Below are positions 1-64,000 of a stretch of 64,000 nucleotides of DNA, piece by piece. Within the stretch, counting starts at the first letter, position 1, and each line of letters begins with the position of its first letter. Origin of the DNA: Escherichia phage UPEC06; sequence record MW250786; one strand, written 5' to 3'. The translations under genes and the position numbers were made by a program. The notes beneath the pieces are model-generated. The model was not told the DNA's origin and searched no databases. It saw only the letters and a program-made list of their open reading frames with translations.

Positions 1-1
1 G

Positions 2-1747
2 GGCGATAAAGGCGACAAGGGTGATATCGGAACGGGTATCGTAGCTCGTGGCGTTGTTGCAACCCAAAGTGCACTTCCTTCCGGCGCAGCACCTGGTGAT
101 TTCTACGTTGTAGAAGATGAAGGTAACGGTTACGCTTGGGACGGTACAGCTTGGGTTTTAACTGGATTAGCTCGTGGACCTCAAGGTCTTAAAGGCGATA
201 CCGGAGAAACCGGAGCCAAAGGTGATAAGGGCGATAAAGGTGATGCAGGCGATGCACTTAAGCTGAGAGGCTTGGTTGCAACTTCCGCTGAACTGCCTTC
301 CACTGCTGAACTTGGTGACTTCTATGTCGCTGAAGACACCGGAATTGGTTACGCTTGGGATGGTGTTGCTTTCGTTTCTGCCGGAACCGTTAGAGGACCG
401 CAAGGTGAAGTAGGGCCGCAGGGTGAAGTTGGTCCTCAAGGACCTCAAGGCGAGAAGGGAGATGCTGGCGAGCAAGGTCCTCAAGGATTGGTCGGTGAAA
501 CAGGTGCAAAAGGTGATAAAGGAGATAAGGGTGACGTTGGCTCTGGTCTGATTCCGAGAGGAACTTTACCATCTCAAGCAGATCTTCCTCAAACTGGTGA
601 AGTTGGTGACTTCTACGTAGCTAACGATACTGGTATTGGCTATGCTTTTGATGGAACTGCATTCGTAGAAGCTGGAGTTGCCCGTGGTCCACAGGGTGAA
701 CAAGGACCCCAGGGTGAACAGGGACCACAAGGACTTAAAGGTGATACTGGTGAAACAGGTGCTCAGGGACCTCAAGGTGTTCAAGGTGAGAAAGGTGATA
801 CCGGAGAACGTGGAGAGGTAGGTCCGCAAGGTGATCAGGGTCCGCAAGGTGAGCAAGGTCCTCAGGGTGATATCGGACCAGGTGTAGAGATCATTGGACG
901 ATTTGATACCTCTGATGAATTACCTTCCACGGGTACTTTGGGTCAAGGTTACCTTATCCAAGGCGACTTCTGGGGTTGGACTGGTGCAGCATACGAGAAC
1001 TTGGGTCGTATTCAAGGTCCGGTTGGACCAGTAGGTCCTACGGGTGACCAAGGACCACAAGGCCCTGTCGGTAACAAAGGCGATAAAGGCGACCAAGGGA
1101 CCCTTTGGGTAGTTTTTGCTCGTGCACCAATGGTGAGCGATGGTCGTGTTAACGATCTGTACCTCAACTCTTCCACTCTGGAATATTACCGTAAAACTTC
1201 CGCAACGAACTGGGCACTGCTCGGATTCTTAGGTGGTGGTAACGTGTATGACGCACCAGGGGACGGAAAGCTGTATGTCCGTACTGATGGTGGTTGGGTT
1301 GAATTACCTACCGCAGAAGTTCTGGAAGCACCTCGTGATGGTAACCAATACGTCCGTAAAGACGGCGCTTGGACAACTGTTACAGTTCCTGTAACGGAAG
1401 CACCACTTGAAGGTGGATTCTACGTCCGTGAAAATGGTGCGTGGGTTAAACTGGATCAGTACGATTTACGTGTTGTTGCTTCAACTGGTGCAATTGATGC
1501 AAGCTCTGGTAATGCTTGGACTTTAGATGGTACAACCAACAAGTCCTTGACTATCACCGGATTGCCAGCAGGAAGGGCTAAAACCATAGTTTTACGATTC
1601 ACTGGTAACGGTGGTCAGATTAACTGGGATAGCCAGATCGCTTGGTCTAACGGAACAGCACCGACCCTCGGAGCTACCCGCACTATCCTGACCCTGTTCT
1701 GGGATGGTGAATTCCTGACTGGTACTCAGGCAATGACTGTAGGTTAA
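2..1747 (+). CDS. collagen-like repeat fibre protein, 5' partial (reading frame open from window edge)
   Basis: Frame of the 272..1747 ORF stays open back to nt 2; G-X-Y triplet runs ([10 protein letters not shown]) alternate with 4 copies of a ~25-aa motif GDFYVxxDxGxGYAWDG; stop at 1745-1747. Confidence 0.75.
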
Positions 1748-1756
1748 TTTTTAAAT

Positions 1757-1778
1757 GGGGGCTTCGGCCCCCTCTTTT
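1757..1778 (+). terminator. intrinsic terminator (UUCG tetraloop hairpin + U-tract)
   Basis: GGGGGC-TTCG-GCCCCC followed by TCTTTT, directly after stop codon. Confidence 0.6.
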
Positions 1779-1793
1779 CAGAAAGGAGTTAAT

Positions 1794-2429
1794 ATGGTAA
1801 TCGATAAGATTTATGGCTGGACACCTATGATCCGTATGTCTGACATGCGATATCCGGTATACCTGGCCGACTATCGTGCTGAGTATCCCAACGTATCTAT
1901 CGGCAGTTTTGTTTATGCTGTTGGTATGGCTGAGGTTGGATATCATGCGGTTTATGACGTAACTATGCCGCAAGGTGATGTTGTTACTGAAGGATCGCCG
2001 GAATTACGTGAAGATGGATTCTGGTACAGAACTTGGAATGTTAGAGACTTCACCGAACAAGAGATCGCTGATAACCTTGCTCGTGAAAAAGAGCAGCGTA
2101 TCAATGAGGCTCGGATGACTCTTGATAATGAGAGATCCGAAGGGGTTGTTGTAGCCAGCAAACGATATCAGTCAGACGCTCAAGCTTTTGCTTATTATAG
2201 TTCCATCTCTGCTGTTGCTAAAGACTCACCTGAAGAAGTTTTTCACTTAGTTACTTCTGATAATCAGGTAGAAGAATTCCTCGGTGATGAAGTTATTGCC
2301 CATATAAAAGAAATTCAAAAAGTTAACGCAAAAGTTTATGACGAGTTTGCGAAAATTGTAAAATCTATCCGTGAAGCAAGTTCTTCTGAAGAAATCCCTC
2401 AAGTACCTCCCTCTTTTCAAAATCTTTAA
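1794..2429 (+). CDS. hypothetical protein (possible fibre accessory protein)
   Basis: ATG at 1794 preceded by AAAGGAG; the track start at 1755 lies inside the terminator hairpin so the downstream start is preferred. Confidence 0.5.
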   Translation: MVIDKIYGWTPMIRMSDMRYPVYLADYRAEYPNVSIGSFVYAVGMAEVGYHAVYDVTMPQGDVVTEGSPELREDGFWYRTWNVRDFTEQEIADNLAREKEQRINEARMTLDNERSEGVVVASKRYQSDAQAFAYYSSISAVAKDSPEEVFHLVTSDNQVEEFLGDEVIAHIKEIQKVNAKVYDEFAKIVKSIREASSSEEIPQVPPSFQNL

Positions 2430-2459
2430 TAGTAAATAAACTTACTTAAGGAGCATTGC

Positions 2460-4058
2460 ATGAGTAAAAGTATTAGAGGAATGGCAGGTCATAATAACGG
2501 TGTTTTTTACGGAAATGCCCTTTATGACTTAGAAAGAAAGGTTAAAATGGATTTTAAAGATATCATGGAAAAAGGTGATTCCAGCCAAACACCTGGTCCA
2601 GAAGGTCCACAAGGACCAAAAGGGGATACTGGCCCTGCCGGACCTGTAGGTCCTGTAGGTCCGCAAGGACCACAGGGTGAGATCGGGCCTCAGGGTCCTA
2701 CTGGCCCTCAAGGACCTGTCGGAGCTACTGGTCCTACCGGACCTGAGGGTAGTGAAGGACCACAAGGCCCTCAAGGAGAGCAAGGTATAGCTGGTCCAGT
2801 AGGACCAAAAGGGGATACTGGTGAACAAGGTCCTCAGGGAGAGCAAGGACCCGCTGGTCTAAAAGGCGATACTGGGGATATTGGCCCTGCTGGACAAGAA
2901 GGGCCAATAGGTCCGACTGGCCCAACTGGCCCTGCCGGACCAAAGGGGGATGTTGGTCCTCAAGGACCTAAAGGCGAAACTGGTGAGCAGGGACCTATTG
3001 GACCACAAGGCCCACAAGGGGATGTTGGTCCTGTAGGTCCAGCAGGGCTTACTTTCCGAGGTTTTTATGATCCTTTAGTTGAATACTCTCAGAACGATAC
3101 TGTATCTTACAACGGATCTACTTATTTTTCCTTAAGAACAAGTATAGGCGCTAGTCCAGACACATCACTTGAAGATTGGTCTTTATTGGCAGCAGAGGGA
3201 GCAAGAGGCCCACAAGGCCCAACTGGCCCTCAGGGACCTAAAGGCGACCAGGGTGAGATTGGTCCTGCCGGAGCTACCGGTCCTGAAGGTCCGACTGGCC
3301 CAACTGGCCCGACTGGACCCGCTGGACCGAAAGGGGATAAAGGAGATAAAGGAGAGGTTGGACCTCAAGGACCTAAAGGCGACCAAGGGGTTATGGGAGA
3401 ACAAGGACCGCAGGGTATCGCTGGAACTACTGGACCTGCTGGTCCACAAGGACCTAAAGGCGACAAAGGAGATGTTGGCCCTCAAGGTCCCGCTGGTCCA
3501 CAAGGTTTGGATGGTATCCAAGGCCCAGCGGGTCCCCAGGGGATTAGAGGAATACAAGGACCTAAAGGCGACACTGGTGAGCAGGGAGAGAAAGGGGATA
3601 AGGGTGACAAGGGTGAGAAAGGTGATGCAGGAATATCAAGAACATTCCTTAAGGTTAAAACATCATCTGTTGGCACCAATCACGCGATCAAAATGCCAGC
3701 ACCTCTTGATAACCTATCTATAGGCATAAGGCTTGATTCAGCGGTACGTTTTAGTATTAGGGGTTGGATTGATACAGATACGACAGCCAGAAATGTTAGG
3801 GGGGATATTGAAGGCTTCAATAACTCTGAAAATTACTTCAATACAACGGTAAGACAATTGATATCTTCATCAACTGCAACTGGCACAACCCTTGTAGCCG
3901 ATATCAGCGAATTCCAAAGAATTAGGCCATATACATTTAGCTTCTTTGAAACAACAACAGAGACAATGTGGAGAGTAACTATAACTCTCTTCACGTCAGG
4001 GTATGTAGTAACTGACAATCAATGGCTATGTATAGAAGCTGTTAGACTTGATGCGTAA
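2460..4058 (+). CDS. collagen-like triple-helix repeat protein with C-terminal globular domain
   Basis: Two long G-X-Y runs ([14 protein letters not shown]...) separated by a non-collagen segment; AAGGAG upstream. Confidence 0.75.
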
Positions 4059-54108: not shown

Positions 54109-54144
54109 TTTTAAACCCTCGTTGTTTGTATGAGCTAACTATAC

Positions 54145-54158
54145 GAGAACTTGAGAGG
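54145..54158 (+). repeat. isolated copy of GAGAACTTGAGAGG motif in divergent promoter region
   Basis: Same 14-mer core as the 4-copy array at 63079-63246. Confidence 0.5.
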
Positions 54159-54169
54159 AAGATCAATAC

Positions 54170-54197
54170 TTGATTTGTATTTTATTTTCATTATACT
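54170..54197 (+). promoter_or_regulatory. sigma70-like promoter candidate
   Basis: TTGATT-N16-TATACT about 30 nt upstream of ATG 54229. Confidence 0.4.
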
Positions 54198-54228
54198 GTG
54201 CACATCTAAAACAAGAAGGGGATAAGAA

Positions 54229-61963: not shown

Positions 61964-62782
61964 ATGGCCTACCGTAAATTTGACCCACTGATCATTTATG
62001 AAGTTGTCCCAATGAGTATAGCCAACCCTCATGGTTTGCAATCACCTACTCCACTTGATCATAAAACAATGATCAGGAATGCAGAGTACACTTTAAGAGA
62101 TCTAGAGAATGAGGAGATTGAAAGTGCTGTGCATGGGTTGAAAGACCTGATCCGTGAACTTGATACGGATGATTCTGTTCAAGAATATATTGAAAAGTCA
62201 GAGGCACTAATCACGAAGTTTCATGAATACCGCACTAAGGTATCTCGTATTCTTGATGAAGCTTTTGATCCTTCATTAAAAGACCCGATAAAGGATGACA
62301 AAGCAATACTCTTGCTTAGTCAAATAGCTGACGCTACTGACAACATGGACCCTGGTTTTGTAAGAGCTGATCATACCTGTGTAGATCAGTTTCCTTTAGC
62401 TTATCTTAAATCCAAAAAGGCATTCGGTAGTCTGGCTTTTGTCTGGGAGTATGAGAAAGATTCCCTTACTCGTTACATCAATCGGGTAGGTAAGAAAGAT
62501 ATTTCAGTTACATTGAACATCTTCTCTGACGGTTCTTTGATGGTTCATAACAACTGGACAAAAGAAAGTATCCTCTTTGGTAAAGAAAGAGATCAGAAAT
62601 TTAAACTGGTAAACTATATCCGTTTCGCAACAGAGGATAGTAAAATGGGTAAGTCATTTAAAGAGGAGGACTTTAAAACTTTCTTTGAAGACTGGCTTTC
62701 CCCAACAGAAGAAGAGATCCAACTATTCAAAGCTGTGAATGGGGATGTTTCGTTCGACCTGTACACACTCTTTAACGAGTGA
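61964..62782 (+). CDS. hypothetical protein
   Basis: 272 aa; last gene before the repeat region. Confidence 0.45.
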   Translation: MAYRKFDPLIIYEVVPMSIANPHGLQSPTPLDHKTMIRNAEYTLRDLENEEIESAVHGLKDLIRELDTDDSVQEYIEKSEALITKFHEYRTKVSRILDEAFDPSLKDPIKDDKAILLLSQIADATDNMDPGFVRADHTCVDQFPLAYLKSKKAFGSLAFVWEYEKDSLTRYINRVGKKDISVTLNIFSDGSLMVHNNWTKESILFGKERDQKFKLVNYIRFATEDSKMGKSFKEEDFKTFFEDWLSPTEEEIQLFKAVNGDVSFDLYTLFNE

Positions 62783-62900
62783 TATTTGTTCGCTGAAACA
62801 AATTCAAATTTCAGATCCAAAATATATTTGAGATATTTCCCTGTGATATTTGTTTCATGGGGAATTTTCAGATTTCAATTTGAAATTCTATTTGAGATAA
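62780..62900. repeat. imperfect ~60-bp tandem direct repeat (2 units)
   Basis: Both units start TGATATTTGTT and share AAATTTCAGAT/AATTTTCAGAT and TATTTGAGATA. Confidence 0.55.
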
Positions 62901-62963
62901 ATTTAAGACTCCTGCCACCGTGCCCCCTCCATACTGTGTCATTCCTGCATACCTGCACCACTA

Positions 62964-62978
62964 GATCAACTTAGTTGA
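62964..62978. repeat. inverted repeat ATCAACT-T-AGTTGAT (operator-like)
   Basis: 7-bp arms, 1-nt spacer. Confidence 0.4.
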
Positions 62979-63078
62979 TGCCCCTTCTTACAGACTCACC
63001 CTCCAGATTCAATACGTTACTGTTCCAGTATACCTGTGATACAAAGCAAACATACGACACTAGTGACCAAAATAATTT

Positions 63079-63246
63079 GAGAACTTGAGGGGTTTTTCAT
63101 TTTTAAGATCGTAACCTGAAAGCTGTTCACGAGAACTTGAGAGGTTTTTCGATACAGCGATTAGGAACTTGAGAGGTTTTTCATTTTTGAGTTTGCATTT
63201 GAAATTGAGAACTTGAGCTACAGGCCAGATACTTGAGGGGTTTTTC
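63079..63246 (+). repeat. array of 4 direct copies (+1 partial) of 20-bp motif GAGAACTTGAGRGGTTTTTC
   Basis: Copies at 63079-63098, 63131-63150, 63163-63182, 63228-63246; partial 63207-63217; irregular spacing 32-65 bp; AT-rich flank. Confidence 0.65.
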
Positions 63247-63609
63247 AAATTTCAGTTTCATTTCAAAATTGAAAAATTTTTTATATGCACAAAAATATAG
63301 GGCTTGTCAAGGTCTTTGATAAGAAATTTTCAGGAGGTGAGAATTATTCTCATTTGCAGAATAACGGGCAGGGGTGGTGATTGCTTCGTGAAACCGTCCT
63401 CATCACCATGAATATATAATAGCACCGTTTTTGATTAGAAAGCAACAACATTTTAAAAATATTTTTCGGTAAATTTTGGGCGAGCTACCGGCGATCCACC
63501 TTACAACCTGGCGGCGATGCCTGGTATGTTAGCCCCGCCTTTACGCCGTGGGGATGGCGATTGTTTTCCTATGTAAGCATTATGGCCCCTGGCGGGGCCG
63601 TTGTCAACA

Positions 63610-63894
63610 TTATTTTTTATCTTCTTGCCAAGTAAGAACGCCTAACCAAAAATACACGTCGCCCTTAGCGTTCGGTGGTATCTTGCTTTCTTTCCCGCCA
63701 GCACACGCCCAAAGGTAACCATCGGTAAACGTATCAAGGTAGTCCATATCTTCCACCTTTCGATCCGCCAGGTTAAGGATAGTATTAACGTCTAAGCCTG
63801 TTGCGCTTGCTACCTGGTAGACCGTGCCACCTTGCCAGCCTAACGAGTGCATAAGATGCAAAGTAGTAGTAGTAGTAGTGGTGATGGTAGTCAT
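63610..63894 (-). CDS. hypothetical protein in GC-rich island, poly-Thr N-terminus
   Basis: 94 aa ORF; N-terminus MTTITTTTTTT from ACT/ACC repeats; local GC visibly higher than the rest of the window. Confidence 0.35.
   Translation of the reverse strand: MTTITTTTTTTLHLMHSLGWQGGTVYQVASATGLDVNTILNLADRKVEDMDYLDTFTDGYLWACAGGKESKIPPNAKGDVYFWLGVLTWQEDKK
63862..63879. repeat. trinucleotide microsatellite (AGT)6
   Basis: agtagtagtagtagtagt, in frame at the 5' end of ORF 63610..63894. Confidence 0.6.
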
Positions 63895-64000
63895 AGTATC
63901 GCCCTTTCTTCTGTTGTGCGCCCTGGTTGGCGCGGTAAAAAGACTATAAATGATCTTCCTTTATATAGCAAGGAAAAAGAAATTAAAAAAGATTAAAAAT

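Follow-up and report, generated by a model that had tools for sequence, protein, structure and literature searches.

Composition and layout of the locus

The stretch of DNA analysed here, 64,000 nucleotides (nt) of Escherichia phage UPEC06 (sequence record MW250786; hereafter the window), ends in a large non-coding control region of a Vequintavirinae-like coliphage, flanked on both sides by blocks of small genes that point rightward and are presumably early. The window was collinear with Cronobacter phage CR3 and contained, from left to right, rightward structural genes, a leftward block that includes the DNA polymerase and primase-helicase genes, a rightward block of small genes and then the locus, whose sequence (the last 1.3 kb of the window) matched five unclassified Vequintavirinae coliphages (A5-4, A7_1, A73, W70 and vB_EcoM-LTH01, hereafter LTH01) at 89.5-97%. 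Three elements stand out in the right half of the locus: a non-coding core of ~95 bases (63479-63572), a candidate leftward promoter immediately to its right (P1, 63579-63607, - strand) and a small - strand open reading frame (ORF, 63610-63894) whose stop codon adjoins P1. They share a gap of ~1.2 kb (62783-63960) whose layout is conserved across genera.

An earlier note on this DNA had described a GC-rich island beginning at about 63350. The guanine plus cytosine (GC) content of the whole of 63350-64000 was 0.450, compared with a window mean of 0.415 (z = 0.96), and 15% of the same-size windows were equally GC-rich. What stood of the claim was a 137-bp non-coding segment, 63473-63609, with a GC content of 0.577 (z = 3.0; top 0.8% of same-size windows), whereas both ends of the proposed island were AT-rich (0.366 in 63350-63472 and 0.349 in 63895-64000) and the ORF was unremarkable (0.463, z = 1.08). 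The block 63473-63900 as a unit reached 0.498 (z = 2.0), a value equalled or exceeded by four other stretches of the window, e.g. 1-1064 and 2432-3388. The most GC-rich part of the window was its left end (1-4000, structural genes, 0.46-0.52 per kb), far from the locus, and the GC skew flipped at ~25 kb and ~54 kb, together with gene orientation.

Conservation across phage genera

A sensitive search with 63440-64000 retrieved matches in 225 phage records (227 places), and in 129 of these records at least 80% of the query was covered. From 63473 onward, identity was ~75-77% in ~130 phi92-like and Phapecoctavirus genomes. In distant genera the match contracted to the GC-rich non-coding part, which was retained at 79-89% identity in Klebsiella phages of the genus Mydovirus, Cronobacter and Pectobacterium phages of the genus Certrevirus, Salmonella and Enterobacter phages of the genus Seunavirus, and Serratia phages. 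In every locus fetched, the element occupied the same large syntenic gap between rightward small-gene blocks. When the window was compared with 100 kb of CR3, the core (79.1% over 134 columns) exceeded in identity every other alignment of more than 100 bp; the primase-helicase gene reached 78.9% and the DNA polymerase gene 76.2%. A covariance model of the core matched the window at 63479-63576 only (95.9 bits) and found one copy in the 100 kb of CR3 searched, indicating a single-copy element. GenBank phages, IMG/VR and metagenomes together supplied 39 distinct versions of it. Neither BLAST nor the covariance model located the core in the published 2.6-kb ORF-free 'non-coding' region of rV5 (L029, 104013-106618; PMC3606486), and Vequintavirus proper seems either to lack it or to keep it elsewhere.

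This distribution was informative about the provenance of the locus, for which the earlier note had offered a horizontally acquired moron, a host-derived segment or proximity to a genome terminus. No similar sequence was found by blastn in 5,426 complete E. coli genomes, and the exact 21-base core pattern had one match in 100,044 species genomes, located on a 4-kb phage fragment binned into a metagenome-assembled genome. That contig (JAEZZU010000352.1, L054), assigned to a 'Proteobacteria bacterium', is a piece of a Phapecoctavirus-like phage and a binning contaminant. Because the locus is conserved in synteny in 225 phage records, across two subfamilies, and is absent from E. coli genomes, it is not foreign or host DNA, but a conserved phage control region with a small gene and a non-coding element; conservation in related phages was also the observation that the earlier note itself had named as contradicting acquisition. 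Some moron-like traits were nevertheless found. The ORF is an autonomous leftward unit with a conserved promoter-like site, and the content of its slot differs between genera, the gene being absent in CR3 and POP15 and unrelated small leftward ORFs being present in BIS47, EC152 and KP13-16. Against a moron, the composition of the ORF is not distinct (see its z value above), the wide conservation speaks against recent arrival, and the sole candidate for a terminator of its own is a dyad inside P1 that is followed by a U-rich tail in phi92 and not in the window.

As for a physical genome end, several records open in or near the gap: LTH01 is cut at the position equivalent to 63486|63487, EC152 starts 425 nt upstream and EC.P2 ~980 nt upstream. 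However, the two ends of the LTH01 record (PP430345.1), which fall inside the core, join seamlessly without a terminal repeat, and in relatives with complete genomes the locus lies away from the ends, e.g. at 74-75 kb of 145 kb in A5-4. The relatives PhiTE and PVP-SE1 have moreover been reported to be circularly permuted, hence without fixed termini (PMC3475682). With acquisition and host origin refuted, we consider it highly improbable that the locus is a recent GC-rich acquisition or a sequence beside a genome end, in spite of the local GC excess at 63473-63609. The original framing, a foreign island with a slippery repeat, was thus ordinary where it held and mostly wrong, and its correction keeps horizontal transfer or assembly chimerism from being called wrongly.

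Layout and structure of the non-coding core

Alignment of the homologues divided the core into four parts. A nearly invariant box (63479-63502, GGCGAGCTACCGGCGATCCACCTT) is followed by a hairpin, here called P-mid (63503-63529), in which ACAACCTGG and CCTGGT-A-TGT enclose the loop CGGCGATG (pairing 63503-63511 with 63520-63529). Next comes a block (63530-63559, TTAGCCCCGCCTTTACGCCGTGGGGATGGCG, i.e. TTAGCCCCGCCTTTnCGCCGTGGGG(n)TGGCG) that includes the stem CCCCGC/GTGGGG and is invariant in the 39 distinct homologues, and the core closes with a tract (63560-63572) that is pyrimidine-rich on the + strand in every homologue and that, read on the - strand, gives a purine-rich, AGGA-containing 5' end. 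Homologous cores measured 82-97 nt (82, 89 and 91-97), and since these lengths differ by non-multiples of three, the core must be non-coding. Searches against Rfam 15 returned no match at the core, either in the window (E ≤ 1) or in seven homologous loci (E ≤ 5), and no tRNA or tmRNA was found.

Compensatory changes were concentrated in P-mid. Its two arms were paired in 79.7% of cells, compared with 23-36% in slid registers; three pairs had changed on both sides, and one pair was AU in 15 sequences and GC in 14, with none unpaired. The covariation score was 0.148, compared with 0.064 in shuffled alignments, and was reached in 0 of 500 shuffles and in none of the slid registers. As many as 24 distinct middle segments occurred among the homologues, and Kashira, L035, L047 and the pair A5-4/A7_1 had unrelated hairpins at the same position. 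In A5-4 and A7_1, 37 unrelated nt stand in place of 44 nt in the middle of the core (just after GCGAT through GCCCCGCC). A hairpin is kept, and the CCCCGC/GTGGGG stem, whose 3' arm is altered as well, becomes ACC(C)AA/TTGGT, with both sides changed. These two cores (L001 4780-4870 and L049 1080-1170), set in flanks that are ~94% identical, scored only 26 bits with the covariance model, with both stems retained; the allele is either recombinant or a 'compensatory swap' of natural origin. Also considered was a helix of GGCGAGCTA with TAGCCCCGCC that would close the whole core; it was rejected, being 72% paired and devoid of covariation.

That the core might instead encode a very small conserved peptide on one strand was suggested by CR3, where an ATG overlapping the -10 element of P1, preceded by AGGAG-like purines, opens a 35-codon - strand frame across the core. 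This appears extremely improbable, as the varying core length preserves no frame, the purine tract is not followed by a start codon in the window or in most homologues, and the other frames contain stop codons. Rightward coding sequences (CDSs) have been annotated across the core in some records (phAPEC8_00257, L015 1390-1731; GECvBMG_gp240c; KE22 CDS0137), and are probably gene-caller artefacts on GC-rich DNA.

A conserved candidate promoter, directed leftward, adjoins the core

The candidate promoter P1 reads TTGACA-17 nt-CATAAT (11/12). The hairpin GGCCCC-TGGC-GGGGCC that the earlier note had located at 63584-63599 is indeed present and turned out to lie in the spacer of P1. An A-tract precedes the -35 element directly, resembling an UP element, and is formed by the final codons of the ORF, GAT AAA AAA TAA (63610-63622). 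The arrangement looks like an overlapping terminator-promoter design at the end of the ORF. By sequence match, a sigma-70-like site was present on the - strand at the alignment position of P1 in all 25 homologues compared, while no + strand sigma-70 site was found in more than 9 of them. The P1 spacer was GC-rich (0.59-0.88) in each of the 28 homologues tabulated, many of which had a dyad there that differed between clades (GGCCCC/GGGGCC, AAGCCC/GGGCTT, GCCAGGC/GCCTGGC or CCCGGA/TCCGGG). The P1 spacer dyad of phi92 received a score as an ORF terminator.

The conserved sequence begins at ~63572, where the position of the -10 element predicts that transcription would start. A second leftward promoter, ~130-190 nt further on, reached at least 9/12 in 15 of the 25 homologues; the corresponding site in the window (63416-63445, - strand, TTGCTT-18-TATTAT) falls below that threshold, with 8/12, and is weak. 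In CR3, a hairpin in the spacer of the second promoter resembles a terminator ~150 nt downstream of the first start, a feature that is not conserved.

Which strand does the core work on?

The - strand sigma-70 promoter immediately to the right of the core is the strongest positional evidence for its strand. In the model that we favour, the locus would comprise two leftward units. The first would be the ORF, an accessory gene that has a 5' hairpin and is served by a sigma-70 promoter of its own (63971-63943). The second would start at P1 (63607-63579), right after the ORF stop codon, with host RNA polymerase initiating at ~63572 and transcribing leftward through the single-copy, almost invariant core (63572-63479), with P-mid and the second stem. 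The core would thus form the structured 5' domain of an early non-coding RNA, whose invariant, purine-rich single-stranded segments (AGGA...; GGAAGGUGGAUC) may be the active parts, engaging in base pairing or binding a protein. Whether the core is the conserved part of such a leftward transcription module, and a structured early non-coding RNA, is in our estimation an evenly poised question, although no other single reading is as likely. Judged by what is usual for small RNA genes, the conserved promoter is there as a sequence match in 25 of 25 homologues, compensatory changes support P-mid only, and the closing helix has none.

Several observations count against this reading. No intrinsic leftward terminator was found in the window. 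Minimum free energy z-scores of the core were ~0 on both strands, and the minimum free energy structures disagreed between homologues. The core is mostly invariant, with covariation restricted to P-mid and the A5-4 variant, and an invariance that operates on sequence rather than on structure would equally fit a protein-bound DNA site. Finally, certain signals on the + strand, namely helices that depend on G-U pairs and the terminator-like invariant block, favour an RNA of the opposite polarity.

A + strand RNA would be a small RNA, or a leader or attenuator ending at the invariant hairpin (63527-63559) and the pyrimidine tract; P-mid and a helix involving the 5' box would then be mutually exclusive and compete with the outer part of the invariant hairpin, and P1 would drive an antisense partner or serve another use. 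The 9-bp 5'-box helix (AGCUACCGG with CCYGGUA-GUU) was paired in 94.6% of cells, provided that + strand G-U pairs were allowed, and one-sided changes in it (G-U to A-U and G-U to G-C) preserve pairing on the + strand alone. In the + strand consensus of RNAalifold, the invariant hairpin has five G-U pairs, and at one of these positions T had changed to C three times independently, yielding C-G; two scans flagged terminator-like + strand hairpins at the invariant block, and anti-Shine-Dalgarno-like tracts (CCACCUUCC and UUCCUCUUC) are present on this strand. On the other hand, no conserved rightward sigma-70 promoter leads into the core (the best site, with a poor -35 element, occurs in 9 of 25 homologues), and the 5'-box helix showed no two-sided changes, did not exceed shuffled alignments and loses one pair without compensation in five homologues (the CTCCCGG variants). 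The tail is a mixture of C and U rather than a U-run, and an RNA made rightward in the window would continue into the ORF as its antisense. On balance, we deem a + strand RNA unlikely, albeit deserving of attention.

Comparison with known systems places the core, read leftward from P1, close to the phage small RNAs that host RNA polymerase synthesises (such as lambda OOP, the lambda PR' '6S' RNA and the T4 species C and D RNAs), with which it shares a short intergenic non-coding element, a sigma-70 promoter and conserved hairpins. It differs from them in having neither sequence nor Rfam similarity nor a clear intrinsic terminator. The core seems to behave like a phage small-RNA gene that belongs to no described family and is apparently new. 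Functional non-coding RNAs are expressed in this phage group, as exemplified by the pseudo-ToxI RNA of the related rV5-like phage PhiTE (PMC3475682). Unlike pseudo-ToxI, the core is not repetitive, and in PhiTE no pseudo-ToxI repeat was found in the vicinity of the core. The lambdoid late promoter PR' offers a further parallel, as P1 too looks like a strong, constitutive promoter and is followed by a highly conserved, initially transcribed region; the clade-specific dyad in the P1 spacer recalls the Q-binding element between the -35 and -10 elements of PR'. In contrast to PR', no Q-like antiterminator was identified, and what lies leftward of P1 is non-coding DNA and the antisense strand of rightward genes rather than a late operon.

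Repeats and palindromes in the surrounding gap

The left edge of the gap is marked by two 57-nt repeats (62779-62899) that begin with GTGATATTTGTT, the first of them overlapping the stop codon of the upstream gene; besides the core, they were the only non-coding stretch that aligned to CR3 (75%). Within them, TGTGATATT reads as an extended -10 element. The gap then contains three or four repeats of ~65 bp, represented in the window by four direct copies of GAGAACTTGAGRGGTTTTTC (63079-63246, at spacings of 52, 32 and 64 bp). Homologous ~65-bp repeats, with two GATC sites per unit, were found in CR3, BIS47 and Kashira. From their sequence and arrangement, the GAGAACTTGAGRGGTTTTTC repeats look like iterons or regulator sites. 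A fifth copy, GAACTTGAGAGG, lies at 54147-54158, in the divergent promoter gap 54109-54228 (4 matches, compared with 0.6 expected). A - strand ORF of 62 amino acids at 63060-63248 translates these DNA repeats, and its product contains KNEKPLKF three times. A5-4 (A54_61), A7_1, A73, W70 and LTH01 carry it as an annotated hypothetical protein, which is probably spurious.

Between the repeats and the core there is a perfect 15-bp palindrome (63338-63352, TGAGAATTATTCTCA) that resembles an operator and, in particular, the Fur box, whose 7-1-7 consensus is TGATAATnATTATCA. In relatives, palindromes of the form TGA(G/T)AATnATT(C/A)TCA are arranged just upstream of the core in arrays of 2-5 copies with an exact 29-bp period (L002 3765-3872, L006 1273-1383 and L015 1260-1361), whereas only one good copy is present in the window. 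The window palindrome fits 12 of the 14 defined positions of the Fur box, and many relatives, with a TGATAAT half-site, fit 13 of 14 and in arrays. They depart from the Fur box in a consistent, symmetric G/C at position 4 of the palindrome, and because single-base differences of this kind define specificity within the Fur family, a different regulator, possibly phage-encoded, is just as likely a ligand on these sequence grounds. A hairpin of conserved position follows (63375-63408, TGGTGAT...ATCACCA), consisting of a different GC-rich inverted repeat in each clade and lacking a U-tail on either strand.

This architecture raises the alternative that the core exerts its effect as DNA, or as an RNA-DNA hybrid, and that the ~1.2-kb gap is a replication origin or another protein-bound control site in which transcription from P1 through the core would generate an R-loop primer or activate the origin, while the repeats and palindromes would bind an initiator or host factors. 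In the origins of T4 (oriE and oriF), T7 and ColE1, a promoter and an untranslated transcript occur together with repeats or an unwinding element. In keeping with the T4 origins, the T7 primary origin and ori-lambda, the single-copy gap brings together a promoter, a predicted untranslated transcript, direct repeats (three or four, conserved in layout and GATC-rich in CR3, BIS47 and Kashira), palindromes spaced in arrays of 29-bp period and AT-rich tracts next to one or two leftward promoters; the likeness is one of architecture only. Invariance at the sequence level is also typical of DNA recognised by proteins. Against an origin, no adjacent initiator gene was identified, consensus DnaA boxes were absent from the gap and not enriched in the window, and the window has a single good palindrome. 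The GC skew of the core is 0 in the window, so that its RNA would not be G-rich, and a covarying hairpin is foreign to the origins named and not needed in a duplex DNA site. Furthermore, skew analyses in the related phage group follow transcription rather than replication (PMC3606486). Taking both sides together, an origin or other DNA-level role for the core strikes us as decidedly unlikely.

Considering the gap as a whole, it is somewhat short of an even call that the core and its leftward promoter constitute an undescribed family of structured non-coding RNA, or an RNA-primed control or origin element, of Vequintavirinae and Stephanstirmvirinae, located in a ~1.2-kb hub with Fur-box-like operator arrays, expressed early by the host polymerase and constrained like the replication enzymes. 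As a conserved non-coding element it is a credible, testable candidate. Searches of the literature on this phage group, and for the sequence strings, returned no paper that ties these phages to small RNAs, to transcriptomes or RNA sequencing, or to the core, and work beyond the searchable literature is possible. Some of the most conserved DNA of a large group of virulent phages does not code for protein, has no Rfam entry, and is either left unannotated or wrongly labelled as CDS. The carriers (Phapecoctavirus, Justusliebigvirus, Mydovirus, Seunavirus, Certrevirus and A5-4-like phages) include many used or proposed for therapy, the two subfamilies comprising many therapeutic coliphages as well as Klebsiella and Salmonella phages. 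Should the element be an early regulatory RNA or part of an origin, it would provide a direct handle on the start of infection, which is essentially unstudied in these phages, and a region not to be disrupted in engineered genomes. The analysis also exposed annotation errors, including a probably wrong ORF start in A5-4 and A7_1 (see below), probably spurious CDSs over the repeats and the core, and a GenBank record opened inside the element.

The small leftward gene

The ORF at 63610-63894 (- strand) encodes a protein of 94 amino acids (N-terminus MTTITTTTTTTL... / MTTITTTTTTTLHLMHSLGWQGG...) and belongs, as an ordinary member, to the uncharacterised family of phage proteins represented by its homologue phi92 gp224 (PHROG 19316). 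Residues 8-94 aligned to positions 2-88 of the 88-position PHROG 19316 profile (E = 8.2e-50), and identity to phi92-type proteins was 76-84%. A profile search against 1.8 billion representatives yielded 210 clusters, mostly of proteins of 60-120 amino acids, with a shared signature, LGWQGGT(I/V)HQV...TGL followed by a C-terminal GN..FW.GV; matches to large proteins were artefacts of leucine-rich repeats or zinc fingers and were discarded. The AlphaFold (AF2) model has five helices with a mean confidence (pLDDT) of 90. No match was found in Pfam, NCBIfam, PADLOC or PDB and no structural relative of the family was detected, so that gp224 proteins are predicted to adopt an orphan helical fold of unknown function. 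Our initial guess of a helix-turn-helix DNA-binding regulator was dropped, as neither a profile nor a fold of that type matched. A peptide-pattern scan of IMG/VR produced no confirmed relative, and nothing could be learned from the gene neighbourhoods of two distant family members.

The gene was found in the same slot and orientation, as a lone leftward gene between two rightward blocks, in phi92, A5-4, A7_1, A73, W70, Kashira and phi1_175008. Since it is absent in Certrevirus and replaced by other small leftward ORFs in Mydovirus and Seunavirus, it is an accessory cassette in a variable slot, albeit an old one. Similarity to the phi92-type genes extends from size, orientation and slot to the expression signals: start codon, Shine-Dalgarno sequence (AAAGGG), 5' hairpin and a promoter-like site (63943-63971, - strand, TTGCTA-17 nt-TATAGT; TTGCTA-17-TATTAT in phi92) are conserved out to phi92 and phAPEC8. 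The 5' untranslated region (63895-63936, - strand) is identical or nearly so in window-type and phi92/phAPEC8-type phages, with fold z-scores of -1.95 and -2.42 and a 5'-proximal hairpin, GCGCC-AACCAG-GGCGC (63918-63933). An outer helix that would sequester the Shine-Dalgarno sequence was also drawn and then dropped, because the predicted transcription start falls inside it, and probably only the inner hairpin is kept. In A5-4 (L001 4904-5146) and A7_1 (L049 1204-1446), the gene is annotated from an internal methionine, Met15, as a protein of 80 amino acids; this start is probably wrong, judging from the conservation of the upstream ATG and Shine-Dalgarno sequence out to phi92.

An in-frame triplet repeat of variable length

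The feature that distinguishes the window copy from the other gp224-type proteins is six extra N-terminal residues derived from an expanded (ACT)n tract. As the earlier note had stated, the repeat is a perfect (AGT)6 on the + strand (63862-63879), equivalent to (ACT)6 threonine codons, lies in frame within the - strand ORF and forms the threonine run at its N-terminus. It was the only trinucleotide repeat of at least five units in the 64 kb (expected count 0.005), and 6 units were reached in 0 of 200 dinucleotide-preserving shuffles. The family N-terminus is MTTTTL or MTNTTL, of which MTTI(T)7L in the window is a clade-specific expansion.

The suggestion that the triplet could vary by slippage was borne out by the isolates: six copies were present in the window, five in A5-4 and four in A7_1, isolates that are otherwise ~94% identical. 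A GCT breaks the tract in A73 and LTH01, and W70, phi92 and phAPEC8 have short, impure versions. Whole-unit steps of this kind fit replication slippage. Phase-variable contingency loci likewise have perfect tandem repeats that gain or lose whole units among near-identical isolates. Unlike the tetra- and pentanucleotide or homopolymer repeats of those loci, however, the unit here has three bases, and neither frame shifts nor on/off switching result from it: all the alleles observed were in frame, and neither a frame shift nor a change in promoter spacing was seen. As the unit is one codon and the frame is never lost, the repeat is a length polymorphism and not a switch, i.e. an ordinary coding microsatellite, in which slippage would change only the length of a disordered or helix-capping N-terminus.

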